Source of the DNA: Mobula hypostoma
Taxonomy: Eukaryota
DNA: 64,000 nt
Direction: 5' to 3'
Assembly (NCBI RefSeq): GCF_963921235.1
Contig: NC_086097.1
Span: 66,218,001-66,282,000 of the forward strand
The first letter of the stretch is position 1. Each line of letters starts with the position of its first letter. Under the pieces are notes generated by a model that was given only the letters and a program-made list of their open reading frames with translations, was not told the origin of the DNA and did not search any database. This document shows, piece after piece, positions 1-33,786 of this stretch. Both the position numbers and the translations under genes were made by a program.

Positions 1-3000
1 GAGGCTGGAGGCTGGAAACTAGCGGCGAAGCGAGGCTGGAGGCTGGTGACTAGGGGCGAATCGAGGCTGGAGGCTGGAGACTGGAGGTGGGGCGAGGCTG
101 GAGACTAGAGACTGGAGACGCGAGGCGAGGCTGGAGATGTGAGACAAGTCGAGGCGAGAGTGGAGGCTGGAGATTAGTGGCGTGGCGAGGCTGGATATTA
201 GTGGCGATGCGAGGCTGGAGACTAGAGGCGAGGCAAGGCTGGAGGCTGGAGACTAGGGGTGAGGCGAGGCTGGAGACTAGGGGTGGAGTGAGGCTGGAGG
301 CTGGAGACTAGTGGCGAAGTGAGGCTGAAGACTGGAGGCGAGGCGAGGCTGGAGACTGGAGGCGAGGCGAGGCTGGAGACTAGGGGTGAGGCAAGGCTGG
401 AGGCTGGAGACTAGTGGCGAAGCGAAGCTGGAGGCTGTAGACTAGTGGCGAGGTTGGAGGCTAGGGGCGAGGCTGGAGGCTGGAGACTAGGGGCGAGGCG
501 AGGCTGGAGGCTGGAGACTAGGGGCGAGGCGAGGCTGGAGGCTGGAGACTAGGGGCGAGGCGAGGCTGGAGGCTGGAGACTAGGGGCGACGCGAGGCTGG
601 AGGCTGGAGACCGGGGGCGACGCGAGGCTGGAGGCTGGAGACTAGAAGCAAGGCTGGAGGCTGGAGACTAGGGGCGAGGCGAGGCTGGAGGCTGGAGACC
701 AGGGGCGAGGCGAGGCTGGAGGCTGGAGACCAGGGGCGAGGCTGGAGGCTGGAGACCAGATGCGAGGCGAGGCTGGAGGCTGGAGACGAGGCGAGGCTGG
801 AGGCTGGAGACTAGAGGATTGGCGAGGTTGGAGACTAGAGGATTGGCGACGCTGGTGATGTGAGACGTGTCGAGGCTGGAGACGCAAGGCGAGGCGAGAG
901 TGGAGGTTGGAGACTAGTGGCGAGGCGAGGCTGGAACTAGTGGCAAGGCGAGGCTGGAGACTAGGGGCGAGGCAAAACTGGAGGCTGGTGACTAGGGGCG
1001 AAGCGAAGCTGGAGGCTGTAGACTGGTGGCGAGGTTGGAGGCTAGGGGCGAGGCTGGAGGCTGGAGACTAGGGGCGAGGCGAGGCTGGAGTCTGGAGACT
1101 AGGGGCGAGGCGAGGCTGGAGGCTGGAGACTAGGGGCGAGGCGAGGCTGGAGGCTGGAGACTAGGGGCGAGGCGAGGCTGGAGGCTGGAGACTAGGGGCG
1201 AGGCGAGGCTGGAGGCTGGAGACTAGGGGCGAGGCGAGGCTGGAGGCTGGAGACTAGGGGCGAGGCGAGGCTGGAGGCTGGAGACTAGGGGCGAGGCGAG
1301 GCTGGAGGCTGGAGACTAGAGGCGAGGCGAGGCTGGAGGCTGGAGACTAGAGGCGAGGCTGGAGGCTGGAGACCCGGGGCGGGGCGAGGCTGGAGGCTGG
1401 AGGCTGGAGACCAGAGGCGACACGAGGCTGGAGGCTGGAGACAAGAAGCAAGGCTGGAGGCTGGAGACCCAGGGCGGGGCGAGGCTGGAGGCTGGAGACT
1501 AGAGGCGAGGCGAGGCTGGAGACTGGAGACTTGAGGCGAGGCGAGGCTGGAGTCTGGTGACTGGAGGCAGGGCGAGCCTGGAGACTAGAGGCGAGGCGAG
1601 GCGAGGCTGTAGACTAGAGACGAGGCGAGGCTGGAGACTAGAGACGAGGCGAGGCTGGAGACTAGAGACTAGAGGATTGGCGACGCTGGTGATGCGAGAC
1701 GAGTCGAGGCTGGAGAATAGGGGCAGGGCAAGGCGAGGCTGGAGGGTGGAGACGAGGGACGAGGCGAGGCTGGAGGCTGGAGACTAGAGGCGAGGCGAGG
1801 CTGGAGGCTGGAGACTAGAGGTGGGGCGAGTCTGGAGACAAGAGACTGGAGACCCGAGGCGAGGCTGGAGACTAGAGGAGAGGCGAGGCTGGAGACGCGA
1901 GACAAGTCGAGGCGAGAGTGGAGGCTGGAGACTAGTGGCGAGGCGAGGCTGGAGACTGGAGGCGAGGCGAGGCTGGAGACTGGAGGCGAGGCTGGAGACT
2001 AGGGGTGAGGCGAGGCTGGAGACTAGGGGTGGAGTGAGGCTGGAGGCTGGAGACTAGGGGCGAAGCGAAGCTGGAGGCTGTAGACTGGTGGCGAGGTTGG
2101 AGGCTAGGGGCGAGGCTGGAGGCTGGAGACTAGGGGCGAGGCGAGGCTGGAGGCTGGAGACTAGGGGCGAGGCGAGGCTGGAGGCTGGAGACTAGGGGCG
2201 AGGCGAGGCTGGAGGCTGGAGACCAGGGGCGAGGCTGGAGGCTGGAGACCAGGGGCGAGGCGAGGCTGGAGGCTGGAGACCAGGGGCGAGGCGAGGCTGG
2301 AGGCTGGAGACTAGGGGCGAGGCGAGGCTGGAGGCTGGAGACTAGAGGCGAGGCTGGAGGCTGGAGACGAGGCGAGGCTGGAGGCTGGGGACTAGAGGAT
2401 TGGCGAGGTTGGAGACTAGAGGATTGGCGAGGCTGGTGATGCGAGACGAGTCGAGGCTGGAGACACAAGGCGAGGCTGGAGACTAGGGGCAGGGCGAGCC
2501 GAGGCTGGAGGGTGGAGACTAGGGATGAGGCGAGGCTGGAGGCTGGAGACTAGGGGCGAGGCGAGGCTGGAGGCTGGAGACTAGGGGCGAGGCGAGGCTG
2601 GAGGCTGGAGACTAGCGGCGAGGCAAGGCTGGAGGCTGGAGACTAGGGGTGGAGTGAGGTTGGAGGCTGGAGACTAGTGGTGGAGTGAGGCTGGAGGCTG
2701 GAGACTAGGGGCGAGGCAAAACTGGAGGCTGGTGACTAGGGGCGAAGCGAAGCTGGAGGCTGTAGACTGGTGGCGAGGCTGGAGGCTGGAGACTAGGGGC
2801 GAGGCGAGGCTGGAGGCTGGAGACTAGGGGCGAGGCGAGGCTGGAGGCTGGAGACTAGTGGCGAGGCGAGGCTGGAGACTAGGGGTGGAGTGAGGTTGGA
2901 GGCTGGAGACTAGTGGTGGAGTGAGGCTGGAGGCTGGAGACTATTGGCGAGGCAAGGCTGGAGGCTGGAGACTAGGGGCGAGGCGAGGCTGGAGGCTGGA

Positions 3001-6000
3001 GACTGGTGGCGAGGCTGGAGGCTGGAGACTAGGGGCGAGGCGAGGCTGGAGGCTGGAGACTAGGGGCGAGGCGAGGCTGGAGGCTGGAGACTAGGGGCGA
3101 GGCGAGGCTGGAGGCTGGAGACTAGGGGCGAGGCGAGGCTGGAGGCTGGAGACTAGGGGCGAGGCGAGGCTGGAGGCTGGAGACTAGGGGCGAGGCGAGG
3201 CTGGAGGCTGGAGACTAGGGGCGAGGCGAGGCTGGAGGCTGGAGACTAGGGGCGAGGCGAGGCTGGAGGCTGGAGACTAGGGGCGAGGCGAGGCTGGAGG
3301 CTGGAGACTAGGGGCGTGGCGAGGCTGGAGGCTGGAGACTAGGGGCGAGGCGAGGCTGGAGGCTGGAGACTAGGGGCGAGGCGAGGCTGGAGGCTGGAGA
3401 CTAGGGGCGAGGCGAGGCTGGAGGCTGGAGACTAGGGGCGAGGCGAGGCTGGAGGCTGGAGACTAGGGGCGAGGCGAGGCTGGAGGCTGGAGACTAGGGG
3501 CGAGGCGAGGCTGTAGGCTGGAGACTAGAGGCGAGGTGAGGCTGGAGGCTGGAGACTGGGGGTGAGGCGAGGCTGGAGGCTGGAGGCTGGAGACCAGAGG
3601 CGAGGCGAGGCTGGAGGGTGGAGACTAGGGACGAGGCGAGGCTGGAGGCTGGAGACCCGGGGCGAGGCTGGAGGCTGGAGACTAGAGGCGAGGCGAGGCT
3701 GGAGACTGGAGACTGGAGACTTGAGGCGAGGCGAGGCTGGAGGCTGGAGACTAGAGGCGGGGCGAGGCTGGAGACTAGAGGCGAGGCGAGGCTGGAGACT
3801 AGAGACGAGGCGAGGCTGGAGACTAGAGACTAGAGGATTGGCGACGCTGGTGATGCGAGACGAGTCGAGGCTGGAGAATAGGGGCAGGGCAAGGCGAGGC
3901 TGGAGGGTGGAGACGAGGGACGAGGCGAGGCTGGAGGCTGGAGACTAGAGGCGTGGCGAGGCTGGAGGCTGGAGACTAGAGGCGGGGCGAGGCTGGAGAC
4001 TAGAGACTGGAGACGCGAGACGAGTCGAGGCGAGAGTGGAGGCTGGAGACTAGTGGCGAGGCGAGGCTGGAGACTGGAGGCGAGGTGAGGCTGGAGGCTG
4101 GAGACTAGGGGCGAGGCGAGGCTGGAGGCTGGAGACTAGGGGCGAGGCGAGGCTGGAGGCTGGAGACTGGGGGTGAGGCGAGGCTGGAGGCTGGAGGCTG
4201 GAGACCAGAGGCGACGCGAGGCTGGAGGCTGGAGACTAGAAGCAAGGCTGGAGGCTGGAGACCCGTGGCGGGGCGAGGCTGGAGGCTGGAGACTAGAGGC
4301 GAGGCGAGGCTGGAGACTGGAGACTTGAGGCGAGGCGAGGCTGGAGTCTGGTGACTGAAGGCAGGGCGAGCCTGGAGACTAGAGGCGAGGCGAGGCTGTA
4401 GACTAGAGACGAGGCGAGGCTGTAGACTAGAGACCAGAGGATTGGCGATGCTGGTGATGCGAGACGAGTCGAGGCTGGAGAATAGGGGCAGGGCAAGGCG
4501 AGGCTGGAGGGTGGAGACTGGGGGTGAGGCGAGGCTGGAGGCTGGAAACTAGTGGCGTGGCAAGGCTGGAGGCTGGAGACTAGAGGCGGGGCGAGGCTGG
4601 AGACAAGAGACTGGAGACCCGAGGCGAGGCTGGAGACTAGAGGAGAGGCGAGGCTGGAGACGCGAGACGAGTCGAGGCGAGAGTGGAGGCTGGAGACTAG
4701 TGGCGAGGCGAGGCTGAAGACTGGAGGCGAGGCGAGACTGGAGGCGAGGCGAGGCTGGAGACAGGAGGCGAGGCGAGGCTGGAGGCTGGAGACAAGGGGC
4801 GAGGCGAGGCTAGAGGCTGGAGACTCGGGGTGGAGTGAGGCTGGAGGCTGGAGACTAGGGGCGAAGCGAAGCTGGAGGCTGTAGACTAGTGGCGAGGTTG
4901 GAGGCTAGGGGCGAGGCTGGAGGCTGGAGACTAGGGGCGAGGCGAGGCTGGAGGCTGGAGACTAGGGGCGAGGCGAGGCTGGACGCTGGAGAGTAGGGGC
5001 GAGGCGAGGCTGGACGCTGGAGACTAGGGGCGAGGCGAGGCTGGAGGCTGGAGACCGGGGCGAGGCGAGGCTGGAGGCTGGAGACCAGGGGCGAGGCGAG
5101 TCTAGAGGCTGGAGACCAGGGGCGAGGCTGGAGGCTGGAGACGAGGCGAGGCTGGAGACGAGGCGAGGCTGGAGGCTGGATACTAGAGGATTGGCGAGGT
5201 TGGAGACTAGAGGATTGGCGAGGCTGGTGTTGCGAGACGAGTCGAGGCTGGAGACGCAAGGCGAGGCTGGAGACTAGGGGCAGGGCGAGGCGAGGCTGGC
5301 GGGTGGAGACTCGGGACAAGGCGAGGCTGGAGGCTGGAGACTAGCGGCGAGGCGAGGCTGGAGGCTGGTGACTAGGGGCGAAGCGAGGCTGGAGGCTGGA
5401 GACTAGCGGCGAGGCGAGGCTGGAGGCTGGAGACTGGGGGCGAAGCGAGGCTGGAGGCTGGTGACTATGGGCGAAGCGAGGCTGGAGGCTGGAGACTAGA
5501 GGCGGGGCGAGTCTGGAGGCTGGAGACTAGAGGCGGGGTGAGGCTGGAGGCTGGAGACTAGAGGTGGGGCGAGTCTGGAGACAAGAGACTGGAGACCCGA
5601 GGCGAGGCTGGAGACTAGAGGAGAGGCGAGGCTGGAGACGCGAGACAAGTCGAGGCGAGAGTGGAGGCTGGAGACTAGTGGCGAGGCGAGGCTGGAGACT
5701 GGAGGCGAGGCGAGGCTGGAGACTGGAGGCGAGGCTGGAGACTAGGGGTGAGGCGAGGCTGGAGACTAGGGGTGGAGTGAGGCTGGAGGCTGGAGACTAG
5801 TGGCGAAGCGAAGCTGGAGGCTGTAAACTAGTGGCGAGGTTGGAGGCTAGGGGCGAGGTTGGAGGCTGGAGACTAGGGGCGAGGCGAGGCTGGACGCTGG
5901 AGAGTAGGGGCGAGGCGAGGCTGGAGGCTGGAGACCAGGGGCGAGGCGAGGCTGGAGGCTGGAGACCAGGGGCGAGGCTGGAGGCTGGAGACCAGGGGCG

Positions 6001-9000
6001 AGGCGAGGCTGGAGGCTGGAGACCAGGGGCGAGGCGAGGCTGGAGGCTGGAGACCAGGGGCGAGGCGAGTCTAGAGGCTGGAGACCAGAGGCGAGGCTGG
6101 AGGCTGGAGACGAGGCGAGGCTGGAGGCTGGGGACTAGAGGATTGGCGAGGTTGGAGACTAGAGGATTGGCGAGGCTGGTGTTGCGAGACGAGTCGAGGC
6201 TGGAGACGCAAGGCGAGGCTGGAGACTAGGGGCAGGGCGAGGCGAGGCTGGCGGGTGGAGACTCGGGACAAGGCGAGGCTGGAGGCTGGAGACTAGCGGC
6301 GAGGCGAGGCTGGAGGCTGGAGACTAGGGGCGAGGCGAGGCTGGAGGCTGGAGACTAGAGGCGAGGCGAGGCTGGAGGCTGGAGACTGGAGGCGAGGCGA
6401 GGCTGGAGGCTGGTGACTATGGGCGAAGCGAGGCTGGAGGCTGGAGACTAGAGGCGGGGCGAGGCTGGAGGCTGGAGACTAGAGGCGGGGTGAGGCTGGA
6501 GGCTGGAGACTAGGGGCGAGGCGAGGCTGGAGACTAGAGGCGAGGCGAGGCTGGAGGCTGGAGACTGGTGGCGAGGCGAGGCTGGAGACTAGTGGCGAGG
6601 CGAGGCTGGAGACTAGGGGTGGAGTGAGGCTGGAGGCTGGAGACTAGGGGTGGAGTGAGGCTGGAGACTAGGGGTGAGGCAAAACTGGAGGCTGGTGACT
6701 AGGGGCGAAGCGAAGCTGGAGGCTGTAGACTGGTGGCGAGGCTGGAGGCTGGAGACTAGGGGCGAGGCGAGGCTGGAGGCTGGAGACTAGGGGCGAGGCG
6801 AGGCTGGAGGCTGGAGACTAGGGGCGAGGCGAGGCTGGAGGCTGGAGACTAGGGGCGAGGCGAGGCTGGAGGCTGGAGACTAGGGGCGAGGCGAGGCTGG
6901 AGGCTGGAGACTAGGGGCGAGGCGAGGCTGGAGGCTGGAGACTAGGGGCGAGGCGAGGCTGGAGGCTGGAGACTAGGGGCGAGGCGAGGCTGGAGGCTGG
7001 AGACTAGGGGCGTGGCGAGGCTGGAGGCTGGAGACTAGGGGCGAGGCGAGGCTGGAGGCTGGAGACTAGGGGCGAGGCGAGGCTGGAGGCTGGAGACTAG
7101 GGGCGAGGCGAGGCTGGAGGCTGGAGACTAGGGGCGAGGCGAGGCTCGTGGCTGGAGACTAGAGGCGAAGTGAGGCTGGAGGCTGGAGACTGGGGGTGAG
7201 GCGAGGCTGGAGGCTGGAGGCTGGAGACCAGAGGCGACGCGAGGCTGGAGGCTGGAGACTAGAAGCAAGGCTGGAGGCTGGAGACCCGGGGCGGGGCGAG
7301 GCTGGAGGCTGGAGGCTGGAGACCAGAGGCGACACGAGGCTGGAGGCTGGAGACAAGAAGCAAGGCTGGAGGCTGGAGACCCAGGGCGGGGCGAGGCTGG
7401 AGGCTGGAGACTAGAGGCGAGGCGAGGCTGGAGACTGGAGACTTGAGGCGAGGCGAGGCTGGAGTCTGGTGACTGGAGGCAGGGCGAGCCTGGAGACTAG
7501 AGGCGAGGCGAGGCGAGGCTGGAGACTAGAGACATGGCGAGGCTGGAGACTAGAGACATGGCGAGGCTGGAGGCTGGAGACTAGAGACTAGAGGATTGGC
7601 GACGCTGGTGATGCGAGACGAGTCGAGGCTGGAGAATAGGGGCAGGGCAAGGCGAGGCTGGAGGGTGGAGACGAGGGACGAGGCGAGGCTGGAGGCTGGA
7701 AACTAGTGGCGTGGCAAGGCTGGAGGCTGGAGACTAGAGGTGGGGCGAGTCTGGAGACAAGAGACTGGAGACCCGAGGCGAGGCTGGAGACTAGAGGAGA
7801 GGCGAGGCTGGAGACGCGAGACAAGTCGAGGCGAGAGTGGAGGCTGGAGACTAGTGGCGAGGCGAGGCTGGAGACTGGAGGCGAGGCGAGGCTGGAGACT
7901 GGAGGCGAGGCTGGAGACTAGGGGTGAGGCGAGGCTGGAGACTGGAGACTGGAGACTTGAGGCGAGGCGAGGCTGGAGTCTGGTGACTGGAGGCAGGGCG
8001 AGCCTGGAGACTAGAAGCGAGGCGAGGCTGTAGACTAGAGACGAGGCGAGGCTGGAGGCTGGAGACTAGAGGATTGGCGAGGCTGGTGATGCGAGACGAG
8101 TCGAGGCTGGAGACTAGGGGCAGGGCAAGGCGAGGCTGGAGGGTGGAGACGAGGGACGAGGCGAGGCTGGAGGCTGGACACTAGTGGCGTGGCAAGGCTG
8201 GAGGCTGGAGACTAGAGGCGGGGCGAGGCTGGAGACTAGAGACTGGAGACGCGAGACGAGTCGAGGCGAGAGTGGAGGCTGGAGACTAGTGGCGAGGCGA
8301 GGCTGGAGACTGGAGGCGAGGTGAGGCTGGAGGCTGGAGACTAGGGGCGAATCGAGCCTCGAGGCTGGAGCCTAGGGGCGAAGCGAGGCTGGAGGCTGGA
8401 GACTGGGGGTGAGGCGAGGCTGGAGGCTGGAGGCTGGAGACCAGAGGCGACGCGAGGCTGGAGGCTGGAGACTAGAAGCGAGGCTGGAGGCTGGAGACCC
8501 GTGGCGGGGCGAGGCTGGAGGCTGGAGACTAGAGGCGAGGCGAGGCTGGAGACTGGAGACTTGAGGCGAGGCGAGGCTGGAGGCTGGAGACTGGAGGCCA
8601 GGGCGAGGCTGGAGACTAGAGGCGAGGCGAGGCTGTAGACTAGAGACGAGGCGAGGCTGTAGACTAGAGACCAGAGGATTGGCGATGCTGGTGATGCGAG
8701 ACGAGTCGAGGCTGGAGAATAGGGGCAGGGCAAGGCGAGGCTGGAGGGTGCAGACGAGGGACGAGGCGAGGCTGGAGGCTGGAGACTAGGGGCGAGGCAA
8801 GGCTGGAGGCTGGAGACTAGAGACGGGGCGAGGCTGGAGACTAGAGACTGGAGACGCGAAGCGAGGCTGGAGACTAGAGGAGAGGCGAGGCTGGAGACGC
8901 GAGACGAGTCGAGGCGAGAGTGGAGGCTGGAGACTAGTGGCGAGGCGAGGCTGAAGACTGGAGGCGAGGCGAGACTGGAGGCGAGGCGAGGCTGGAGACT

Positions 9001-12000
9001 GGAGGCGAGGCGAGGCGAGGCTGGAGACTAGGGGTGGGGCGAGGCTGGAGACTAGGGGTGGAGTGAGGCTGGAGGCTGGTGACTAGGGGCGAAGCGAAGC
9101 TGGAGGCTGTAGACTAGTGGCGAGGTTGGAGGCTAGGGGCGAGGCTGGAGGCTGGAGACTAGGGGCGAGGCGAGGCTGGAGGCTGGAGACTAGGGGCGAG
9201 GCGAGGCTGGAGGCTGGAGACTAGGGGCGAGGCGAGGCTGGAGGCTGGAGACTAGGGGCGAGGCGAGGCTGGAGGCTGGAGACCAGGGGCGAGGCGAGGC
9301 TGGAGGCTGGAGACTAGGGGCGAGGCGAGGCTGGAGGCTGGAGACTGGAGTAGAGTCGGGGCGAGGCTGGAGACTAGAGGCGAGGCGAGGCTGGAGACTA
9401 GAGACATGGCGAGGCTGGAGGCTGGAGACTAGAGGATTGGCGAGGTTGGAGACTAGAGGATTGGCGAGGCTGGTGATGCGAGACGAGTCGAGGCTGGAGA
9501 CACAAGGCGAGGCTGGAGACTAGGGGCAGGGCGAGCCGAGGCTGGAGGGTGGAGACTAGGGATGAGGTGAGGCTGGAGGCTGGAGACTAGGGGCGAGGCG
9601 AGGCTGGAGGCTGGAGACTAGGGGCGAGGCGAGGCTGGAGGCTGGAGACTAGGGGCGAGGCGAGGCTGGAGGCTGGAGACTGGGGGCGACGCGAGTCTGG
9701 AGGCTAGTGACTATGGGCGAAGCGAGGCTGGAGGCTGGAGACTAGAGGCGGGGCGAGGCTGGAGGCTGGAGACTAGAGGCGGGGCGAGGCTGGAGGCTGG
9801 AGACTACAGGCGGGGCTGGAGACTGGAGACGCGAGGCGAGGCTGGAGACGAGAGGAGAGACGAGGCTGGAGACGCGAGGCAAGGCGAGAGTGGAGGTTGG
9901 AGACTGGTGGCGAGGCGAGGCTGGAGACTAGTGGCAAGGCGAGGCTGGAGACTAGGGGTGGAGTGAGGTTGGAGGCTGGAGACTAGGGGTGGAGTGAGGC
10001 TGGAGGCTGGAGACTAGGGGCGAGGCAAAACTGGAGGCTGGTGACTAGGGGCGAAGCGAAGCTGGAGGCTGTAGACTGGTGGCGAGGCTGGAGGCTGGAG
10101 ACTAGGGGCGAGGCGAGGCTGGAGGCTGGAGACTAGGGGCGAGGCGAGGCTGGAGGCTGGAGACTAGGGGCGAGGCTGGAGGCTGGAGACTAGGGGCGAG
10201 GCGAGGCTGGAGGCTGGAGACTAGGGGCGAGGCGAGGCTGGAGGCTGGAGACTAGGGGCGAGGCGAGGCTGGAGGCTGGAGACTAGGGGCGAGGCGAGGC
10301 TGGAGGCTGGAGACTAGGGGCGAGGCGAGGCTGGAGGCTGGAGACTAGGGGCGAGGCGAGGCTGGAGGCTGGAGACTAGGGGCGAGGCGAGGCTGGAGGC
10401 TGGAGACTAGGGGCGAGGCGAGGCTGGAGGCTGGAGACTAGGGGCGTGGCGAGGCTGGAGGCTGGAGACTAGGGGCGAGGCGAGGCTGGAGGCTGGAGAC
10501 TAGGGGCGAGGCGAGGCTGGAGGCTGGAGACTAGGGGCGAGGCGAGGCTGGAGACTAGGGGCGAGGCGAGGCTGGAGGCTGGAGACTAGGGGCGAGGCGA
10601 GGCTGGAGGCTGGAGACTAGGGGCGAGGCGAGGCTCGTGGCTGGAGACTAGAGGCGAAGTGAAGCTGGAGGCTGGAGACTGGGGGTGAGGCGAGGCTGGA
10701 GGCTGGAGGCTGGAGACCAGAGGCGACGCGAGGCTGGAGGGTGGAGTCTAGAAGCAAGGCTGGAGGCTGGAGACCCGGGGCGGGGCGAGGCTGGAGGCTG
10801 GAGACTAGAGGCGAGGCGAGGCTGGAGACTGGAGACTGGAGACTTGAGGCGAGGCGAGGCTGGAGTCTGGTGACTGGAGGCAGGGCGAGCCTGGAGACTA
10901 GAAGCGAGGCGAGGCTGTAGACTAGAGACGAGGCGAGGCTGGAGACTAGAGACTAGAGGATTGGCGACGCTGGTGATGCGAGACGAGTCGAGGCTGGAGA
11001 ATAGGGGCAGGGCAAGGCGAGGCTGGAGGGTGGAGACGAGGGACGAGGCGAGGCTGGAGGCTGGAAACTAGTGGCGTGGCAAGGCTGGAGGCTGGAGACT
11101 AGAGGCGGGGCGAGGCTGGAGACTAGAGACTGGAGACGCGAGACGAGTCGAGGCGAGAGTGGAGGCTGGAGACTAGTGGCGAGGCGAGGCTGGAGACTGG
11201 AGGCGAGGTGAAGCTGGAGACTGGAGACTAGGGGCGAATCGAGCCTCGAGGCTGGAGACTAGGGGCGAAGCGAGGCTGGAGGCTGGAGACTGGGGGTGAG
11301 GCGAGGCTGGAGGCTGGAGGCTGGAGACCAGAGGCGACGCGAGGCTGGAGGCTGGAGACTAGAAGCAAGGCTGGAGGCTGGAGACCCGGGGCGGGGCGAG
11401 GCTGGAGGCTGGAGACTAGAGGCGAGGCGAGGCTGGAGACTGGAGACTTGAGGCGAGGCGAGGCTGGAGTCTGGTGACTGAAGGCAGGGCGAGGCTGTAG
11501 ACTAGAGACGAGGCGAGGCTGGAGACTAGAGACGAGGCGAGGCTGGAGACTAGAGACTAGAGGATTGGCGACGCTGGTGATGCGAGACGAGTCGAGGCTG
11601 GAGAATAGGGGCAGGGCAAGGCGAGGCTGGAGGGTGCAGACGAGGGACGAGGCGAGGCTGGAGGCTGGAAACTAGTGGCGTGGCAAGGCTGGAGGCTGGA
11701 GACTAGAGGCGGGGCGAGGCTGGAGACAAGAGACTGGAGACCCGAGGCGAGGCTGGAGACTAGAGGAGAGGCGAGGCTGGAGACGCGAGACGAGTCGAGG
11801 CGAGAGTGGAGGCTGGAGACTAGTGGCGAGGCGAGGCTGAAGACTGGAGGCGAGGCGAGACTGGAGGCGAGGCGAGGCTGGAGACTGGAGGCGAGGCGAG
11901 GCGAGGCTGGAGACTAGGGGTGAGGCGAGGCGAGGCTGGAGACTAGGGGTGGAGTGAGGCTGGAGGCTGGAGACTAGTGGCGAAGCGAAGCTGGAGGCTG

Positions 12001-15000
12001 TAGACTAGTGGCGAGGTTGGAGGCTAGGGGCGAGGCTGAAGGCTGGAGACTAGGGGCGAGGCGAGGCTGGAGGCTGGAGACTAGGGGCGAGGCGAGGCTG
12101 GAGGCTGGAGAGTAGGGGCGAGGCGAGGCTGGACGCTGGAGACTAGGGGCGAGGCGAGGCTGGACGCTGGAGACTAGGGGCGAGGCGAGGCTGGAGGCTG
12201 GAGACCGGGGCGAGGCGAGGCTGGAGGCTGGAGACCAGGGGCGAGGCGAGTCTAGAGGCTGGAGACCAGGGGCGAGGCTGGAGGCTGGAGACGAGGCGAG
12301 GCTGGAGACGAGGCGAGGCTGGAGGCTGGAGACTAGAGGTTTGGCGAGGTTGGAGACTAGAGGATTGGCGAGGCTGGTGTTGCGAGACGAGTCGAGGCTG
12401 GAGACGCAAGGCGAGGCTGGAGACTAGGGGCAGGGCGAGGCGAGGCTGGCGGGTGGAGACTCGGGACAAGGCGAGGCTGGAGGCTGGAGACTAGCGGCGA
12501 GGCAAGGCTGGAGGCTGGTGACTAGGGGCGAAGCGAGGCTGGAGGCTGGAGACTAGCGGCGAGGCAAGGCTGGAGGCTGGCGACTGGGGGCGAAGCGAGT
12601 CTGGAGGCTAGTGACTATGGGCGAAGCGAGGCTGGAGGCTGGAGACTAGAGGCGGGGCGAGTCTGGAGGCTGGAGACTAGAGGCGGGGTGAGGCTGGAGG
12701 CTGGAGACTAGAGGTGGGACTGGAGACTGGAGACGCCAGGCGAGGCTGGAGACTAGAGGAGAGACGAGGCTGGAGACGCGAGGCAAGGCGAGAGTGGAGG
12801 TTGGAGACTGGTGGCGAGGCGATGCTGGAGACTAGTGGCAAGGCGATGCTGGAGACTAGGGGTGGAGTGAGGTTGGAGGCTGGAGATTAGTGGTGGAGTG
12901 AGGCTGGAGGCTGGAGACTAGGGGCGAGGCAAAACTGGAGGCTGGTGACTAGGGGCGAAGCGAAGCTGGAGGCTAGGGGCGAGGCTGGAGTCTGGAGACT
13001 AGGGGCGAGGCGAGGCTGGAGTCTGGAGACTAGGGGCGAGGCGAGGCTGGAGGCTGGAGACTAGGGGCGAGGCGAGGCTGGAGGCTGGAGACTAGGGGCG
13101 AGGCGAGGCTGGAGGCTGGAGACTAGGGGCGAGGCGAGGCTGGAGGCTGGAGACTAGGGGCGAGGCGAGGCTGGAGGCTGGAGACTAGGGGCGAGGCGAG
13201 GCTGGAGGCTGGAGACTAGGGGCGAGGCGAGGCTGGAGGCTGGAGACTAGGGGCGAGGCGAGGCTGGAGGCTGGAGACTAGGGGCGAGGCGAGGCTGGAG
13301 GCTGGAGACTAGGGGCGAGGCGAGGCTGGAGGCTGGAGACTAGGGGCGAGGCGAGGCTCGTGGCTGGAGACTAGAGGCGAAGTGAAGCTGGAGGCTGGAG
13401 ACTGGGGGTGAGGCGAGGCTGGAGGCTGGAGGCTGGAGACCAGAGGCGACGCGAGGCTGGAGGGTGGAGTCTAGAAGCAAGGCTGGAGGCTGGAGACCCG
13501 GGGCGGGGCGAGGCTGGAGGCTGGAGACTAGAGGCGAGGCGAGGCTGGAGACTGGAGACTGGAGACTTGAGGCGAGGCGAGGCTGGAGTCTGGTGACTGG
13601 AGGCAGGGCGAGCCTGGAGACTAGAAGCGAGGCGAGGCTGAGACTAGAGACGAGGCGAGGCTGGAGACTAGAGACTAGAGGATTGGCGACGCTGGTGATG
13701 CGAGACGAGTCGAGGCTGGAGAATAGGGGCAGGGCAAGGCGAGGCTGGAGGGTGGAGACGAGGGACGAGGCGAGGCTGGAGGCTGGAAACTAGTGGCGTG
13801 GCAAGGCTGGAGGCTGGAGACTAGAGGCGGGGTGAGGCTGGAGACTAGAGACTGGAGACGCGAGACGAGTCGAGGCGAGAGTGGAGGCTGGAGACTAGTG
13901 GCGAGGCGAGGCTGGAGACTGGAGGCGAGGTGAGGCTGGAGACTGGAGACTAGCGGCGAATCGAGCCTCGAGGCTGGAGACTAGGGGCGAAGCGAGGCTG
14001 GAGGCTGGAGACTGGGGGTGAGGCGAGGCTGGAGGCTGGAGGCTGGAGACCAGAGGCGACGCGAGGCTGGAGGCTGGAGACTAGAAGCAAGGCTGGAGGC
14101 TGGAGACCCGGGGCGGGGCGAGGCTGGAGGCTGGAGACTAGAGGCGAGGCGAGGCTGGAGACTGGAGACTTGAGGCGAGGCGAGGCTGGAGTCTGGTGAC
14201 TGAAGGCAGGGCGAGCCTGGAGACTAGAGGCGAGGCGAGGCTGTAGACTAGAGACGAGGCGAGGCTGTAGACTAGAGACCAGAGGATTGGCGATGCTGGT
14301 GATGCGAGACGAGTCGAGGCTGGAGAATAGGGGCAGGGCAAGGCGAGGCTGGAGGGTGCAGACGAGGGACGAGGCGAGGCTGGAGGCTGGAAACTAGTGG
14401 CGTGGCAAGGCTGGAGGCTGGAGACTAGAGGCGGGGCGAGGCTGGAGACAAGAGACTGGAGACCCGAGGCGAGGCTGGAGACTAGAGGAGAGGCGAGGCT
14501 GGAGACGCGAGACGAGTCGAGGCGAGAGTGGAGGCTGGAGACTAGTGGCGAGGCGAGGCTGAAGACTGGAGGCGAGGCGAGACTGGAGGCGAGGCGAGGC
14601 TGGAGACTGGAGGCGAGGCGAGGCGAGGCTGGAGACTAGGGGTGAGGCGAGGCTGGAGACTAGGGGTGGAGTGAGGCTGGAGGCTGGAGACTAGTGGCGA
14701 AGCGAAGCTGGAGGCTGTAGACTAGTGGCGAGGTTGGAGGCTAGGGGCGAGGCTGAAGGCTGGAGACTAGGGGCGAGGCGAGGCTGGAGGCTGGAGACTA
14801 GGGGCGAGGCGAGGCTGGAGGCTGGAGACTAGGGGCGAGGCGAGGCTGGAGGCTGGAGACTAGGGGCGAGGCGAGGCTGGAGGCTGGAGACCAGGGGCGA
14901 GGCGAGGCTGGAGGCTGGAGTCCAGGGGCGAGGCGAGTCTAGAGGCTGGAGACCAGGGGCGAGGCTGGAGGCTGGAGACGAGGCGAGGCTGGAGACGAGG

Positions 15001-18000
15001 CGAGGCTGGAGGCTGGATACTAGAGGATTGGCGAGGTTGGAGACTAGAGGATTGGCGAGGCTGGTGTTGCGAGACGAGTCGAGGCTGGAGACGCAAGGCG
15101 AGGCTGGAGACTAGGGGCAGGGCGAGGCGAGGCTGGCGGGTGGAGACTCGGGACAAGGCGAGGCTGGAGGCTGGAGACTAGCGGCGAGGCGAGGCTGGAG
15201 GCTGGTGACTAGGGGCGAAGCGAGGCTGGAGGCTGGAGACTAGCGGCGAGGCAAGGCTGGAGGCTGGCGACTGGGGGCGAAGCGAGTCTGGAGGCTAGTG
15301 ACTATGGGCGAAGCGAGGCTGGAGGCTGGAGACTAGAGGCGGGGCGAGTCTGGAGGCTGGAAACTAGAGGCGGGGTGAGGCTGGAGGCTGGAGACTAGAG
15401 GTGGGGCTGGAGACTGGAGACGTCAGGCGAGGCTGGAGACTAGAGGAGAGACGAGGCTGGAGACGCGAGGCAAGGCGAGAGTGGAGGTTGGAGACTGGTG
15501 GCGAGGCGAGGCTGGAGACTAGTGGCAAGGCGAGGCTGGAGACTAGGGGTGGAGTGAGGTTGGAGGCTGGAGACTAGTGGTGGAGTGAGGCTGGAGGCTG
15601 GAGACTATTGGCGAGGCAAAACTGGAGGCTGGTGATTAGGGGCGAAGCGAAGCTGGAGGCTGTAGACTGGTGGCGAGGCTGGAGGCTGGAGACTAGGGGC
15701 GAGGCGAGGCTAGAGTCTGGAGACTAGGGGCGAGGCGAGGCTGGAGGCTGGAGACTAGGGGCGAGGCGAGGCTGGAGGCTGGAGACTAGGGGCGAGGCGA
15801 GGCTGGAGGCTGGAGACTAGGGGCGAGGCGAGGCTGGAGGCTGGAGACTAGGGGCGAGGCGAGGCTGGAGGCTGGAGACTAGGGGCGAGGCGAGGCTGGA
15901 GTCTGGAGACTAGGGGCGAGGCGAGGCTGGAGGCTGGAGACTAGGGGCGAGGCGAGGCTCGTGGCTGGAGACTAGGGGCGAGGCGAGGCTCGTGGATGGA
16001 GACTAGAGGCGAAGCGAGGCTGGAGGCCGGAGACTGGGGGTGAGGCGAGGCTGGAGGCTGGAGGCTGGAGACCAGAGGCGACGCGAGGCTGGAGGCTGGA
16101 GTTTAGAAGCAAGGCTGGAGGCTGGAGACCTGGGACGGGACGGGGCGAGGCTGGAGGCTGGAGACTTGAGGCGAGGCGAGGCTGGAGTCTGGTGACTGGA
16201 GGCAGTGCGAGCCTGGAGACTGGAAGCGAGGCGAGGCTGTAGACTAGAGACGAGGCGAGGCTGGAGACTAGAGACTAGAGGATTGGCGACGCTGGTGATG
16301 CGAGACGAGTCGAGGCTGGAGAATAGGGGCAGGGCAAGGCGAGGCTGGAGGGTGGAGACGAGGGACGAGGCGAGGCTGGAGGCTGGAGACTAGAGGCGGG
16401 GCGAGGCTGGAGACGCGAGACGAGTCGAGGCGAGAGTGGAGGCTGGAGACTAGTGGCGAGGCGAGGCTGGAGACTGGAGGCGAGGCGAGGCGAGGCTGGA
16501 GACTAGGGGTGAGGCGAGGCTAGAGGCTGGAGACTAGGGGCGAGGCGAGGCTGGAGGCTGGAGACTAGGGGCGAGGCGAGGCTGGAGACTGGAGACTTGG
16601 GGCGAGGCGAGGCTGGAGGCTGGATACTAGGGGCGAGGCGAGGCTGGAGGCTGGAGACTAGGGGCGAGGCGAGGCTGGAGGCTGGAGTCTAGGGGCGAGG
16701 CGAGGCTGGAGGCTGGAGGCTGGAGACCAGAGGCGACGCGAGGCTGGAGGCTGGAGACTAGAAGCAAGGCTGGAGGCTGGAGACCAGATGCGAGGCGAGG
16801 CTGGAGGCTGGAGACCCGGGGCGGCGCGAGGCTGGAGGCTGGAGACTAGAGGCGAGGCGAGGCTGGAGGCTGGAGACTTGAGGCGAGGCGAGGCTGGAGG
16901 CTGGAGACTGGAGGCGAGGAGAGGCTGGAGTCTGGTGACTGGAGGCAGGGCGAGCCTGGAGACTAGAAGCGAGGCGAGGCTGTAGACTGGAGACGAGGCG
17001 AGGCTGGAGACTAGAGACTAGAGGATTGGCGACGCTGGTGATGCGAGACGAGTCGAGGCTGGAGAATAGGGGCAGGGCAAGGCGAGGCTGGAGGGTGGAG
17101 ACGAGGGACGAGGCGAGGCTGGAGGCTGGAGACTAGAGGCGGTGTGAGGCTGGAGACTAGAGACTGGAGACGCGAGGCGAGGCTGGAGACTAGAGGAGAG
17201 GCGAGGCTGGAGACGCGAGACGAGTCGAGGCGAGAGTGGAGGCTGGAGACTAGTGGCGAGGCGAGGCTGGAGACTGGAGGTGAGCCGAGGCGAGGCTGGA
17301 GACTAGGGGTGGCGTGAGGCTGGAGGCTGGAGACTAGTGGCGAAGCAAAGCTGGAGGCTGTAGACTCGTGGCGAGGTTGGAGGCTAGGGGCGAGGCTGGA
17401 GGCTGGAGACTAGGGGCGAGGCGAGGCTGGAAGCTGGAGACTAGGGGCGAGGCGAGGCTGGAGGCTGGAGACTAGGGGCGAGGCGAGGCTGGAGGCTGGA
17501 GACTAGGGGCGAGGCGAGGCTGGAGGCTGGAGACTAGGGGCGAGGCGAGGCGCGGCTGGAGACTAGATGCGAGGCTGGAGGCTCGAGACCAGAGGTGAGG
17601 CTGGAGGCTCGAGACCAGAGGCGAGGCTGGAGACTTGGGGCGAGGCGAGGCTGTAGGCTAGAGGCGAGGCAAGGCTGGAGACGCGAGGCGAGGCTGGAGG
17701 CTGGAGATTAGGGGTGGGCGAGGCTGGAGACTAGGGGCGGGGCGAGGCTGGGGACTAGGGGCGGGGCGAGGCTGGAGGCTTGGAGACCAGCGGCGAGGTG
17801 AGGCGAGGCTGGAGGCTGGAGACTAGGGGCGAAGCTGGAGGCTGGAGATTTGAGGCTAGGTGAGGCTGGAGACTTGAGGCGAGGCGAGGCTGGAGGCTGG
17901 AGACTAGAGGCGAGGCGAGGCTGGAGATGCGAGACGAGTCGAGGCTGGAGACACGAGACGAGGCGAGAGTGGAGGCTGGAGACTAGTGGCGAGGCGAGGC

Positions 18001-18990
18001 TGGAGACTAGAGGCGAGGCAACGCTGGAGACTGGAGGCGAGGCAACGCTGGAGACTGGAGGCGAGGCTGGAGAGTCGGGGTGAGGTGAGGCGAGGCTGGA
18101 GGCTGGAGACTAGAGGCGAGGCTGGAGACTAGGGGCGGGGTGAGGTGAGGCTGGAGGCTGGAGACTATGGGCGGGGTGAGGCTGGAGACTAGGGGCGGGG
18201 CGAGGCTGGAGGCTGGAGACCAGGGGCGGGGCGAGGCGAGGCTGGAGACTAGGGGCGAGGCCGGAGGCTGCAGACTAGAGGCGAGGTGAGGCTGGTGGCT
18301 GGAGACTAGAGGCGAGGCGAGGCTGGAGACTAGAGGCGAGGCGAGGCTGGAGGCTGGAGACTAGAAGCGAGGCGAGCTGGAGATGCGAGACGAGTCGAGG
18401 CTGGAGACGCGAGGCGAGGCGAGAGTGGAGGCTGGAGACTAGTGGCGATGCGAGGCTGGAGTCTAGAGGCGAGGCTGGAGACTAGGGCCGGGGTGAGGCG
18501 AGGCTGGAGGCTGGAGACTAGGGGCGAGGCAAGGCTGGAGGCTGGAGACTAGAGGCGAGGCTGTAGGCTGGAGACTAGAGGCGAGGCGAGGCGAGGCTGG
18601 TGCCTTGAGGAGAGCTAAGGCGAGGCTGGAGACTAGAGGAGAGGCGAGGCTGGAGACTAGAGGAGAGACGAGGCTCGAGGAAGGAGGCGAGGCTGGAGGC
18701 TGGAGGCAGCAGACTTGACGCGAGGCTGGAGGCTGGAGGAAGGAGACTTGAAGCGAGTCTGGAGGCTGGAGGCAGGAGACTGGAGGCAGGAGACTTGAGG
18801 CGAGGCTGGAGGCTGTAGGCAGACTTGAGGCGAGGCTGGAGGCAGGAGACTTGAGGCGAGGCTGGAAGCTTGAAGCTGGAGGCTGGAGATTTGAGGCTGG
18901 AGGCAGGAGACTTGAGACGAGGCTTGACAGGAGGCAGGAGACTTGAGACGAGGCTTGACAGGAGGCAGGAGACTTGAGACTTGAGGTGAG
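1..18990. repeat. G-rich satellite array, 31-bp consensus GAGGCTGGAGGCTGGAGACTAGGGGCGAGGC, with higher-order organisation; runs off the left edge
   Basis: Directly visible. Near-pure monomer tracts lie at ~3005-3515, ~6735-7145, ~10085-10635, ~12980-13358 and ~15680-15990, separated by recurring variant blocks. The monomer is 17G/6A/5C/3T. Confidence 0.98.
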
Positions 18991-19534
18991 GCTTGTCTCC
19001 ACCTGGGGAGGGCGTGGATCACCACCCAACAGAGGCAAGGGACAGGAAGGGACAGAACCAACTCCAGGTAACGGCAAGACAGCCTGGCTTACCTAGGCGG
19101 AGGCAAGGGACAGGAAGGGACAGAACCAACCCCAGGTAACGGCAAGACAGCCTGGCTTAGCTGGGCAGAGGCAAGGGACAGGAAAGGAGCTAGGTACAGG
19201 GTGGCTCCAGGACCAGACAGCAAGACAAGTCAGGGCTTCTGGCAAAGCAAGGCGAGACAGAACTTCAGGTGAGGCAAGAGTTACCAGCAAGACAAGGCAG
19301 GGTTTCAGGCGAGGAAACAGAAGGCAGGGGAAGGGATACAAGGAGTAAGGACAAGAACCATCTAGCAACCACACCCTGGTCTCTGGAGGTATTTATGCAG
19401 CCAGCCCCAACGAGCATCAGCTGCCTCAATTAGCTCAACAAGGACAGAAACAGGGTAGATAGGAAAACCTGGAGCAAGGGTCGATGGACCGGACCATGAA
19501 CCAGAATACGGACTTCACGGACCGGACTAGGACA
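18990..19534 (-). mobile_element. 5' part (U3/R) of a Gypsy-like LTR whose downstream portion merges into the satellite
   Basis: The minus strand starts TGTCCTAGTCCGGTCC at 19534 (TG terminus). It has CAGCTG at 19418-19423, a TATA-like ATAAATA at 19390-19396 and then a pyrimidine-rich repeated tract, as in fish Gypsy LTRs. The other terminus is outside the window. Confidence 0.7.
19032..19183. repeat. 68-bp tandem repeat (~2.2 copies) inside the LTR
   Basis: GAGGCAAGGGACAGGAA starts at 19032, 19100 and 19168. Confidence 0.9.
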
Positions 19535-19659
19535 CATGCACACTGCTTCCTCATCGTCGTTTGTTCATTGCCTGGGTCTGATGTCGTTATGTCCATCTGA
19601 CTGGGGTGCTCATCCTCCCCACCTCTCGGTCACCCCTGGGGAGTTATATGGGATGCAGG

Positions 19660-19732
19660 GTTTGAGGGTTGGCACAACATTGTGGGCCAAAGGGCCTGTA
19701 CTGTGCTGTACTATGTTCTATGTTCTATGTTA
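19660..19732 (+). mobile_element. CR1 LINE 3' tail
   Basis: GGGCCAAAGGGCCTGTACTGTGCTGTA followed by a (CTATGTT)n tail. Confidence 0.75.
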
Positions 19733-19974
19733 ATAAATTAGTTCTAAATCTGTCCCATCTGAGATCAAATCTAAGATCCTTGGGTACTGCATGGGTCAGC
19801 TGGTTGTTTTATCCTTATTCTATAATAGGGTTTAATAACATGCAGGTCCTGTACCCTACAGTTTATATGGAATGATCACATTACAGAAAGTTTTGAAGCC
19901 AACCACACCAATGCCAACACCATCTCATTATTATAACACCTCATAATTACAGCACCTCCTGTAATGTGATCAGT

Positions 19975-20110
19975 CTGCTGGAATTCTTTGAGGAAATAAC
20001 AGGCAGGACTGATAAGGGAGTGTCAGTGGATGTTGGTCACTTGGGTTTTCAGAAGACCTTTGACAAGGATAAGACTACTAAGCATGATATTACAGGAAAG
20101 ATACTAGCAG
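19975..20110 (+). mobile_element. CR1 RT fragment
   Basis: Encodes an LEFFEEITGR...VDV...FQKTFDK-like RT motif. Confidence 0.7.
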
Positions 20111-20709
20111 GGCCAAATATGGGCTGGGGGAAAGATTGGTAGGTGAGGAAGAGGGAAGTGAAAATGATGTGAGGAGTAGGTGGAGGTGGCAAAGAGCTGA
20201 AAAAGATAGTATTTGATAGTATCTGTGGACTAAGGAATAACGGGAAGGAGGTGTTGAACCAGACAGAAGCTCATAAGAACATAGTATCGTGAGTTGTTCT
20301 TCATGTGGTCTCTTACAAAAGGGGTATTAAGTTACGCCATTCATAGCTATCTTACATATTTAGGAAACTTACAAACATTATTAATAGACTTTTATAAAAT
20401 TGCACTGTGGTATAGATCCCAGAGGAGAAATGTAAGTCTGTTAATTCAACAGATCCTTTTCATTTCTGAAGGATGCAATAAAAAACCAAAAGGAATCCTT
20501 GGGATATGTTATTATTTCATATCAATAATGTTATATATTGCACAAATATGATGAAGAAAGTGAAGGTTATTGCCAATGTACTAAACTTAGTTTAGTCAGT
20601 TAGGACAATGACATTGGCAGTACAAGAATGATGCACATAAATACTACTATTTAAATTGGTTTTGACAAGATTAAACCTATTTATTTTAAGTAATTTAAAT
20701 TTCAGTTAT

Positions 20710-21820: not shown

Positions 21821-22625
21821 AATCACAAATGTATATTTTGGTAGGCTTTATACAGATATAAGATTAAAATTAAACTATATTTCTTTGTGCACATGAACAC
21901 AAATTTACTACTTTGCAAATTGTTCTATATGCTATGCCTCAATGAATTATTTTATAAAGAACATTTATATTTTTATATGAACTAGGGTATAGAACATAGA
22001 ATAGAGAATAGTATTACACAGGAACAGGCTCTTTGACCCACAGTGTTGTTTTATTCAGATGCCCTGCCAGTAAAATATCCGTATCAATTAATAGAAATAA
22101 TCACAATTTCATGCACCTTTCAGAATTTTGATTGATTTTCTGACAAGTAACAGAAAACAATGAAAAGATACCACAAGGTTAATGTGTTAAAAATAGATTC
22201 CAAGACACTTCCATACTTAACAACCAAGAAGTCTTTTTTTTTGTATTGATGAAAGTATTAATATTAATTCGGTTTGTATCGTGCCCATATAACATCTTAC
22301 ATACCACATGCAAAATTTGACTTGGAATGAGGAGTGGATAGACCATTGATAGTATCCCATCTACTATCCATACCTATTTATAGTGTTTGTGTTAAATATA
22401 AACCGACTTGTTCTAAATATCGATTTTTGCCGCTACTGTATTTCCACCCTCTATCGTTCTGTTTTCCATGCACACTCTTATTTTCGTTGTAGTACCAAAA
22501 CCACCAGCTACTTGTACAATTAGAACATTGAGACAATCCACAATCTATAGAAACGTTACATTCCATTTCTTGAGAGAAAAATATCCGCTTCTGCAATGGA
22601 GTAAATTGACATTTTTGTCTCATAG

Positions 22626-22693
22626 AACGATACTGGCCAACTCAAGATGGAAGCCAGCCTAGCGGAAGAAAAGGATTGTAAATATTCTTCCAG
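22626..22693 (+). other. Candidate small exon (ATG at 22647, MEASLAEEKDCKYSS)
   Basis: Acceptor TTTTTGTCTCATAG, Kozak-like AAGATGG and a strong donor CAG/GTGAGC in repeat-free DNA. No homology recognised. Confidence 0.3.
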
Positions 22694-23659
22694 GTGAGCT
22701 GGCGACTTTCTGCATATTTAGGGTGACTTCGTGGTGACAGGAAAGATTTGGGCTTTTATACATATTTTCACCTGTTGAAAATGCAATTTACATTACCGGC
22801 ATGCGTTGCCGCGATAAACCCGTTGCTGCATCTTTGCTGAAAAATATCGCAGATCCACCCACGTTTTATTTTCGGAGCCGAAGTACTTGAGGATTTTTAG
22901 AGTGTATCATCGCTTGGGAAATCAAATACTGAGTTTTCATTGCTTGGCGAACACGATCAAGCGTTGCATGTTGATTTAGGGAGTATTCTTTGTACCCATT
23001 TCATATACTATTTGACCCTTATTAAAGTGACGTTGACATTTTCTTCAGTTTTAAGACAAATTGTTCCAGGTTAATCTCCAATTAAGTATAAAACAATATG
23101 CAAGATATTGTGGTTTAAATGTCATCGGCTCTATTTATGACGAAAGTCTCTGGAACAAGGTGACAGTGTGCGAGCTGAGGTACAAGTTCTCCCTTCAACT
23201 TTTAACGCAGATTTCAGTGCACTTAAAACCGTGGAAAGTTAAACGATATAATGATGAACGCTGACACCTTTATTTTCATTGCAAATCTATGGGATTTGAA
23301 TGGAAGGGTCTATAGAACGGAAGAAGCGAGCAGTTTATGGCTGTTTGTGGTACTGTACTTTGCCGTTTGTTCGGGGCCAGCTGCTGTAAGAGGTGACCTG
23401 AAAGCAGGCAGGAACAGGTACGTGCACTGGGAAAAGAACACAGATAAAGGCAACTGCCATTTGAGGCTTTAAATGCCAAAGCAGTCAACATGGTGATGTT
23501 GATGGAGAAGCCAGGTGTCATTGCACGACTGACGGTTCACTGACTACGAAGCGATTCTTTGTCACAAGGGGGGCCGTACTGAACCTGATGTTGGGTAATG
23601 AGCCTGGACAGATTTCTGACCTTACAGAGGAGAATAATAAGGAAATAATAGAAAGGAAG

Positions 23660-24572: not shown

Positions 24573-25121
24573 TGTAACTCTCGCTTTGGCTAGTGACTTA
24601 ATATAGGGGATGATAGCCCCCGGCCCGGCCAAACTTAAGAAATCTTGTTTGGGTGGACGCTGCATGATGTGTCCCCTGTTACAAATCAGTACCCCGAAAT
24701 AACAAACAGTACACAATATGCGATTAAACGATTGAGCTTTATCACTCTTACTTTGACTATATGGTTAGTAAAGAAAACAAAAAAAAGAGAAAGGGCCCAT
24801 TCTCATGAAACACAATGTTGGAGTTCACTGATAAGCCGGTTGTCCACCACCGACCTTCTCCGATCTTCGCTGCCCTTCGGACCCTCACTCCAAGTTCACC
24901 CCATCCGGCGATCTACCAACTCTCTCCATTCGCGTCTTCTCTCCTCATCTCTCCCCAGCAAAAGACCGCGAAAATCTCTCTTCCAGACTCACAAGAAAGA
25001 ACAACATTTTTCTCATTGGATAGCCCCAGTATTCCAAACCCCATTATCTCTAGTCATAACCCAAATATTGCTGCTACAGAGAAACCATTACATTAGCAGT
25101 GAAACCTTACAGCATGTTACA
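24573..25121. mobile_element. Solo LTR (549 bp)
   Basis: Termini are TGTAAC...GTTACA. Flanks CTTG/TTTG give a 4-bp TSD with one mismatch. The host CR1 resumes on both sides. Confidence 0.8.
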
Positions 25122-25572
25122 TTTGCTTAGTGATTCTTTATTACTTTTTAATGATTTCCTAATCTTCCTGTTTCCCATAACTCTAGGCAATTTTGTGTAC
25201 ATGAACATTTAGTTTTGATGCCTTCCATATTTCTTCAATTATCTAAGGCTGGCTTTTCCTTACCCTTACTGTCTTTGCTTTTAACTGAAATATACTTCTG
25301 TTGAGCAAGCTGAAAAACTTCTTTAAAAGTCTTCCACTGTTCCTCAACTGTCCCACCATATAGAGTAGGCAGTGTTCCAAGTCTATGCCAGCCAACTCCT
25401 CCCTCATCCTGTATTGGTCTGCCTTGTTTAGGCATAATATACTGGTTTTAGATCAAAATATTGGACCCTATTTTTATATGAAAAGCTCAGTCCTACTGTG
25501 ATCACTCTTTCCAAGATCATTGATTTTACCTGTCTCATTGCACAGGGCCAGATCTAAGATAGCATTTTCCCT

Positions 25573-33781: not shown

Positions 33782-33786
33782 GTGTT

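Follow-up and report, generated by a model that had tools for sequence, protein, structure and literature searches.

The left part of the window (the whole 64,000-nucleotide stretch of DNA that was analysed) is filled by a homogenised satellite array that abuts the 5' part of an LTR-like element, and the array was probably made by in-place expansion of a repeat internal to that LTR (probability about 0.7). The anatomy of the array, the homology between the seed and the monomer, the abundance of the family, its common terminus and the presence of microrepeats in other copies were all observed.

Anatomy of the array

The tandem array occupied the window from base 1 to about 18700, and its left end ran off the window. 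TRF described positions 1-18382 as 605 copies of period 31 with 74% matches and 11% indels. The 31-bp monomer consisted of 7+7+7+5+5-bp subunits built around GAGGC and GAGAC. There were 107 exact copies of the monomer, and the 306 copies with three or fewer mismatches accounted for about half of the array bases. The orientation was single, with no minus-strand self hits. A sequence-only reading of this DNA had described a 31-bp satellite of more than 19 kb. The array and its period stood, but the repeats were less uniform than that description implied and the array itself measured about 18.7-19.0 kb in the window, the figure of 19.5 kb including the LTR-like piece.

The repeats nevertheless had the features of a satellite, a head-to-tail array of many kilobases (>18.7 kb) and homogenisation in higher-order units. 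Rare landmarks recurred as blocks of about 0.5-0.75 kb, and higher-order units began near 972, 2716, 6679, 10025, 12929 and 15616 (at least six units, mostly 2.7-3.9 kb, with a full range of 1.7-4.0 kb). Pairwise alignments of the 2.8-3.2-kb array blocks contained gaps and gave 91.6-93.9% identity, while the ungapped cores were 95.7-100% alike in all 11 cases measured. On the basis of TRF, landmarks and alignments, the homogenised satellite body was assigned to positions 1-17500, where the 31-bp monomer is accompanied by 24- and 26-bp variants and is G-rich on the plus strand and C-rich on the minus strand.

Homogenisation was measured as the share of 30-mers that recur at least 600 bp away, per 500-bp bin. 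The share was 0.67-1.0 in 1001-16500, fell to 0.54-0.63 in 16501-17500 and to 0.12-0.19 in 17501-19000, and was zero in all three 100-bp bins between 18701 and 19000. Recurrence thus delimited a poorly homogenised array edge at 17501-18700, which was still of the GAGACTA type. The first two bins of the window were also low (0.43 and 0.60); either the partners of these sequences lie outside the window or the left edge of the array is near.

The CpG observed/expected ratio of the array was 0.78, that of 18701-19000 was 0.38 and that of 19001-19534 was 0.30; the flanks had values of 0.22-0.29. Between recent array copies, 10 of 768 CpG sites differed as against 30 of 4,737 other sites, an approximately twofold excess in a count for which the compared pairs overlap and may contain assembly errors. 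The canonical G-quadruplex motif had one match across 19 kb.

The LTR-like element

Positions 18997-19534 on the minus strand constitute the 5' part of an LTR-like element, delimited by summed contig depth and a shared terminus. The minus strand begins with TG at 19534 and the flank directly beyond, at 19535, reads CATGC, as the sequence-only reading had reported. The 5' end fits six of the seven letters of the fish Gypsy integrase motifs of Sushi (TGTYANR) and rGmr1 (TGTNANR), as tabulated in Table 3 of PMC3601003. The first 137 nucleotides were 34% T, a weak form of the T-rich start expected of U3. A candidate E-box, CAGCTG (19418-19423), and a candidate TATA-like box, CATAAATA (19397-19390), a weak feature, were located by sequence scan where they had been claimed, both on the minus strand and oriented towards the array. 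Among 1000 dinucleotide shuffles, one contained the two at a spacing of 10-40 bp, a pattern chosen after the fact, and 26 contained the TATA-like word by itself. The 68-bp internal repeat was recovered by TRF at 19030-19188 on the minus strand (2.3 copies, 93%). Descent of the microrepeats from this 68-bp repeat was rejected, since four 90-bp pieces of 19031-19390 scored 8-10 against the monomer (8-9 for the 68-bp repeat itself), no better than shuffles. That fish Gypsy LTRs often carry tandem repeats after the TATA box, as the sequence-only reading had stated, was not confirmed in the literature searched.

Neither strand of 1-19534 contained A[AT]TAAA, so the predicted promoter would meet no poly(A) signal for 19 kb along its path into the array. 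The missing AATAAA would be expected beyond the array if the LTR model holds. No second copy of 18991-19600 was found within the window. The purine tract that would mark a 3' LTR was not seen at 19535 onward. Protein searches with the element frames 18466-19092 and 19096-19392 gave no hits and no gag or pol link, a result that carries little weight where the DNA is non-coding. The designation of the piece as a Gypsy-like LTR is supported by its TG start, integrase motif, T-rich start and E-box/TATA pair, and was left without a gag/pol link by the three protein searches. From these 5'-half features, the element is probably a Gypsy (Metaviridae) LTR, and the rest of the LTR, with its 3' CA terminus and a 4-6-bp target-site duplication, would lie at the far end of the array, beyond the window.

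The array and the predicted promoter of the element share an orientation, in that the candidate promoter faces the array; its RNA would be 51% C. R-loops prefer G-rich RNA, and R-loop-driven growth from an LTR transcript was not favoured, given the C content of the sense RNA.

Transition between the array and the element

Element-type microrepeats, reading GAGGCAG, GAGACTT and GAGGC on the plus strand with 26- and 31-bp periods, occupied positions 18701-18995 (assigned to the minus strand). They were delimited by letter counts, homology score and contig depth and are the putative seed of the array. The short repeats placed earlier at about 18700-18990 were real, with GAGACTT and GAGGCAG units found at 18700-18995. 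When a 90-bp piece of these proximal repeats was compared with a pure monomer run, the local score was 52, as against 14.8±3.1 (maximum 28) in 300 shuffles, which indicates that the proximal microrepeats and the 31-bp monomer have a common origin.

The passage from one to the other had been described as gradual and free of any junction. That is true of homogenisation, which fades over approximately 17000-18700, but not of the letters, which switch sharply. The last GAGACTA was at 18653, the first ACTT-type unit was at 18710 and two diagnostic letters changed in between; the stretch at about 18600-18700 was degenerate. In 1-18700 GAGACTA outnumbered GAGACTT by 347:15, and in 18701-19000 the ratio was 0:7 (p about 1e-9 by Fisher's test, for units that are not independent); GAGGCAGGAGAC was confined to the right side of 18700 (6 occurrences). 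The element-type unit CTGGAGACTTGAGGC was present 13 times within the array, approximately once per block, and the edge of the array had a GAGACTA-GAGGC form that is one step away from the element form.

Other copies of the element

Part of 18700-19700 was present in 20 of the 24 public sequence runs listed, in five organisms. The contigs of four runs (X1 from organism A, X5 from organism B, X20 from organism E, and X11) were compared with 18500-20600 at 85% likeness; among the contigs listed, none spanned the whole interval. The unique flank differed from X1 at none of 841 letters, with a depth of about 10, and from X5 at 10 of 562 letters. X1 may be the source sample and is thus not independent for the locus. 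Organisms B and E had no contig cover at 19778-19919 and the locus was not traced in them, although such a hole proves nothing.

The summed depth over 18997-19493 (seven bins in X1) was 52,000-265,000 in X1, 92,000-561,000 in X5 and 6,000-675,000 in X20, and over the microrepeats at 18701-18995 it was 208,000-1,217,000 in X1 as against about 10 on the unique flank. Summed contig depth does not measure copy number, yet element and flank differ thousands-fold. The copy in the window was approximately 11% diverged, with 89 of 820 letters differing in six X1 pieces among the matches listed.

Of 32 pieces listed from three runs (there were 117,035 others), four stopped at 19526-19535 and continued with 38, 267, 276 and 459 unlike letters, and none of the 32 crossed from the element into the flank. 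The stops support dispersed copies with a common terminus and differing flanks. No site where many molecules end was listed, and none of the 24 loose ends listed (2,151 others) was at 19534.

At the inner boundary, nine X1 contigs that differed from the window covered 18996 (depth 548 of 767), at most 32 letters from the contig end. Two did so in X11 with 39 letters, seven in X5 with only 28, below the tool's 31, and none in X20. Position 19001 was covered by 21 such contigs in X1, 4 in X11, 25 in X5 and 2 in X20. The loose end at 18995 was extended in 63 X1 contigs by more GAGGCAG/GAGACTT units, and in 33 contigs of X20 GAGGC/GACTT subunits were attached directly at 19311, nearer the TATA box. 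Array lengths in other copies are beyond contig reach and the contigs do not tell short arrays from long ones. Nevertheless, the occurrence of microrepeats in other copies, on the same side of the LTR, indicates that such repeats, variable in form, normally belong to this family; an LTR family devoid of GAGGCTG/GAGACT-type repeats, one outcome that would have refuted the sequence-only reading, was not what the contigs showed. The depth at the junction itself (18996) was 767 in X1 and zero in X20, hundreds of times below either side, so that the exact joint is either common to a minority of copies or too diverged to match.

The T form at position 18551 made up 334,408 of 690,224 (48%) in X1, 412,231 of 3,406,076 in X5 and 266,061 of 356,004 (75%) in X20. 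The A form, which is the array type, contributed 52%, 88% and 25% of the depth, respectively. The A form is not private to the locus, which means that it is used by other copies or arrays or that this array is shared and of much greater size. Its abundance in two other organisms means that the array variant need not have arisen at this locus. Six of seven short motifs from joints and loose ends of contigs were absent from the window, indicating that further repeat variants exist elsewhere. The run X11, only guessed to be RNA and with contigs that give neither strand nor level, showed T at 18551 for 1,526 of 1,602 and was not counted as evidence.

Flanks and context of the locus

The right flank at 19535-19645, with no strand assigned, begins with CATGC, a candidate target site, and is a second, less abundant repeat, the summed depth at 19565-19635 being 7,619 in X1, 46,309 in X5 and 1,577 in X20. 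It is followed on the plus strand by the 3' tail of a dispersed element (19645-19732) that matched 43285-43346 and 58303-58344 in the window and that we take to be a CR1-type LINE/SINE. The tail had a depth of 2.9 million in X1 and loose ends at 19667 and 19710; most of the 24 loose ends listed belonged to it. TRF found no array to the right of the element.

A large coding exon of ttc6 was placed at 53724-54749 on the plus strand by protein hits and tblastn. All six protein hits of the 360-codon frame at 53673-54755 were named ttc6 and came from sharks and rays, the best being a sawfish protein with 83% identity, which marks the DNA as that of a ray. The array locus is interstitial, with the same contig extending at least 63.3 Mb before the window and 34.8 Mb beyond it, and lies about 34 kb upstream of the ttc6 exon. 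The human TTC6 orthologue has a promoter in common with FOXA1, according to PMC6978390; three short FOXA1 motifs had no match in the window. A Pfam search of 18 ORFs (not including the one at 63265-63999) detected only a sub-threshold GDSL hit besides a reverse transcriptase (RT) fragment at 61906-62709, Rfam had no matches in 17000-64000, and pattern scans of metagenome, viral and genome contig sets returned none, as expected for animal DNA.

Origin of the array

The direction of change and the mechanisms of growth are deduced as follows. The locus would first have received an LTR from an abundant family of Gypsy-like ray elements. Downstream of its TATA box this LTR, like its relatives, would have carried a short and unstable run of units 5 or 7 bp long (GAGGC, GAGGCTG, GAGACTT). 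Slippage would have lengthened the run and fixed the 26- and 31-bp combinations, and unequal exchange or conversion may then have copied blocks of 0.5-0.75 kb and next units of 2.7-3.9 kb, to more than 19 kb. The units adjoining the unique part of the LTR would have escaped exchange and retained the element-type letters, in keeping with the edge effect by which units at the end of an array are left out of exchange. The array would then be a side effect of recombination acting on a repeat that the element had brought in. Slippage followed by unequal exchange is the general satellite model given in section 6, part 1, of PMC12628747.

The array cores are 95.7-100% alike and CpG-rich while the element is approximately 11% diverged and CpG-poor, which implies that the bulk of the array is younger than the insertion; a young, CpG-rich array beside an old, CpG-poor element fits growth after insertion. 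Moreover, the least homogenised units adjoin the element. The earlier proposal that an LTR microrepeat was amplified to a satellite thus has in its favor the homology, the microrepeats in other copies and the gradient at the edge; the absence of a junction was overstated.

Growth in place has to be set against the sharp switch of letters near 18700, which resembles a recombination joint, and against the A form in X1, X5 and X20, which far exceeds the 347 units of the window and may predate the array or belong to other arrays. Both could be accommodated if half an LTR had been joined to a pre-existing array of a related, family-wide satellite, whether through a deletion or through conversion or ectopic recombination between common subunits, in which case the satellite would still derive from the family but at another locus. 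The switch at 18653-18710 with the degenerate stretch beside it, the abundance of the A form in three organisms, the six of seven motifs that point to variants elsewhere, and a locus that was not traced in organism B or E are all compatible with such a joining. A joining is nonetheless rather unlikely, since the loss of homogenisation stretches across more than 1 kb ahead of the switch, the edge form is a single step from the element form and element-type units recur inside each block. A reversed direction, in which a piece of an older satellite was captured and spread by an ancestral element and the present copy lies at or in the edge of the old array, is the standard alternative named in section 7 of PMC7004042 and is compatible with the finding of the A form even in X20, from the most distant of the organisms compared. 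It is improbable, however, because the high likeness and CpG ratio of the array copies contrast with the decayed element, no array lies to the right of the element and the T form dominates in X20.

Two further explanations were considered. The 540-bp piece could be the end of another mobile element, such as a DIRS-type element, an endogenous retrovirus LTR or a non-autonomous element, in which case growth in place would still hold. No gag/pol link or purine tract was found to argue otherwise, and the repeat totals of a batoid preprint do not separate Gypsy from DIRS1, the two together making up 2.5-3.7% of these genomes; the TG start, the near fit to the fish Gypsy integrase motifs, the T-rich start and the E-box and TATA-like box make another class quite improbable. 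Still less credible is an array length or a junction created by the assembler. Arrays are hard to assemble and no contig listed spanned the whole compared stretch, but a collapse or a chimera would not give nested higher-order copies that differ by 0-4%, nor a gradient of divergence, the type of junction occurs in independent contigs and the unique flank is identical to X1. In-place expansion of the LTR-internal repeat thus remains the preferred explanation.

Relation to known systems

The route from an LTR-internal repeat to a satellite is known. The mouse minisatellites Ms6-hm and Hm-2 lie in MaLR LTRs (Kelly 1994, as listed in PMC9659126 and PMC6947457). Like the present array, they represent a short, G-rich vertebrate repeat expanded inside an LTR. 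The mouse units are reportedly 4-5 bp in length without higher-order structure, whereas the array described here has a 31-bp composite monomer, three repeat levels, more than 19 kb of sequence and a source in a Gypsy-like ray family.

The Ogre-derived satellites of Lathyrus sativus, described in PMC7004042, come from a Ty3/gypsy family whose members hold short tandem arrays at a constant position, some of which occasionally reach satellite size. The ray family is similar in having short tandem arrays at a fixed position, in other copies too, and raises the same question of capture versus expansion. The plant seed, however, is in the 3' UTR of the internal region and the ray seed in an LTR-like piece; the long Ogre arrays, as characterized there, are mostly at primary constrictions while the ray array is interstitial and near a gene; and both flanks and the gag-pol order are given for Ogre, while only the right side falls within the window here.

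Among vertebrates, MALREP of the swamp eel and RPCS of Ctenomys are listed in PMC9659126 as satellites derived from Gypsy or retroviral LTRs. Their origin, as listed, was inferred from monomer similarity, whereas the seed copy of the ray is still attached to the array. The SINE-derived satellites of squamates are an instance of repeated array birth from parts of dispersed retroelements (PMC10702118); there the source is a SINE and the monomer a piece of the element body, in contrast to the pre-existing internal microrepeat of the ray.

Significance

No description of this repeat was found in the literature searched; Dfam and Repbase, which may contain the LTR, were outside its scope, and the relevant passages of a manta and devil ray preprint give repeat class totals only. 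A more far-reaching interpretation is that the family is a vertebrate counterpart of Ogre, with thousands of dispersed cassettes of promoter plus seed, several of which grew independently into ray satellites, and that the LTR promoter of the present copy is still active and drives transcription into an island of more than 19 kb, CpG-rich (0.78) and possibly unmethylated, upstream of ttc6. The scant decay of CpG between recent copies would, within that interpretation, suggest that the array may be unmethylated, but the interpretation as a whole is speculative and unlikely to hold in full.

What the locus offers is a single contiguous stretch in which the microrepeat, the monomer, the block and the higher-order unit can be followed in succession, with the seed still attached. 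Since the seed is spread over very many loci, the family would also lend itself to asking at which chromosomal places short repeats become satellites in a vertebrate, a natural experiment of the kind put forward for Ogre elements in section 10 of PMC7004042.

Right flank of the array and left edge of the window

The repeat at 19535-19645, which was present at intermediate abundance in the public contigs of three organisms, adjoins a tail that was presumed to be of the CR1 type. If the LTR-like element flanking the 31-bp satellite array had inserted into this repeat, the other half of the repeat should lie beyond the array. At the left edge of the window, homogenisation, the share of 30-mers recurring at least 600 bp away, was reduced to 0.43 and 0.60 in the two leftmost 500-bp bins (1-1000), which could indicate that the left end of the array is close by.

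Sequences outside the array

Short LTR-like pieces containing AATAAA or TATAAA words were seen at 24600-25130, 32787-33016 and 35849-36085, and self-comparison of the window showed that the latter two were inverted copies (82%). The same comparison revealed a second inverted pair, the CR1-type 3' fragments 34956-35498 and 37111-37647, with 90% identity and 1.6 kb between the copies. Sequences resembling decayed DNA transposons at 38250-39600 and 56300-58200 were judged by eye to be presumably Tc1-like and hAT-like; two frames from 56300-58200 had no Pfam match. A decayed non-LTR retroelement at 61906-63300 retained a reverse-transcriptase fragment (Pfam RVT_1, E 2e-12), and a perfect 25-bp duplication (63296-63345) was located where it ends.

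A large coding exon of ttc6 was assigned to 53724-54749 (+), in a frame open from 53673 and closed by a GT donor near 54741-54750. Two stretches were CpG-rich, 22251-23500 and 33501-35000, with observed/expected values of up to 1.11 and 1.06, respectively. A short exon-like piece, running from ATG to GT, was noted near 22650-22695 inside the former. Each of the two CpG-rich stretches may represent the promoter of ttc6 or regulatory DNA that is conserved.
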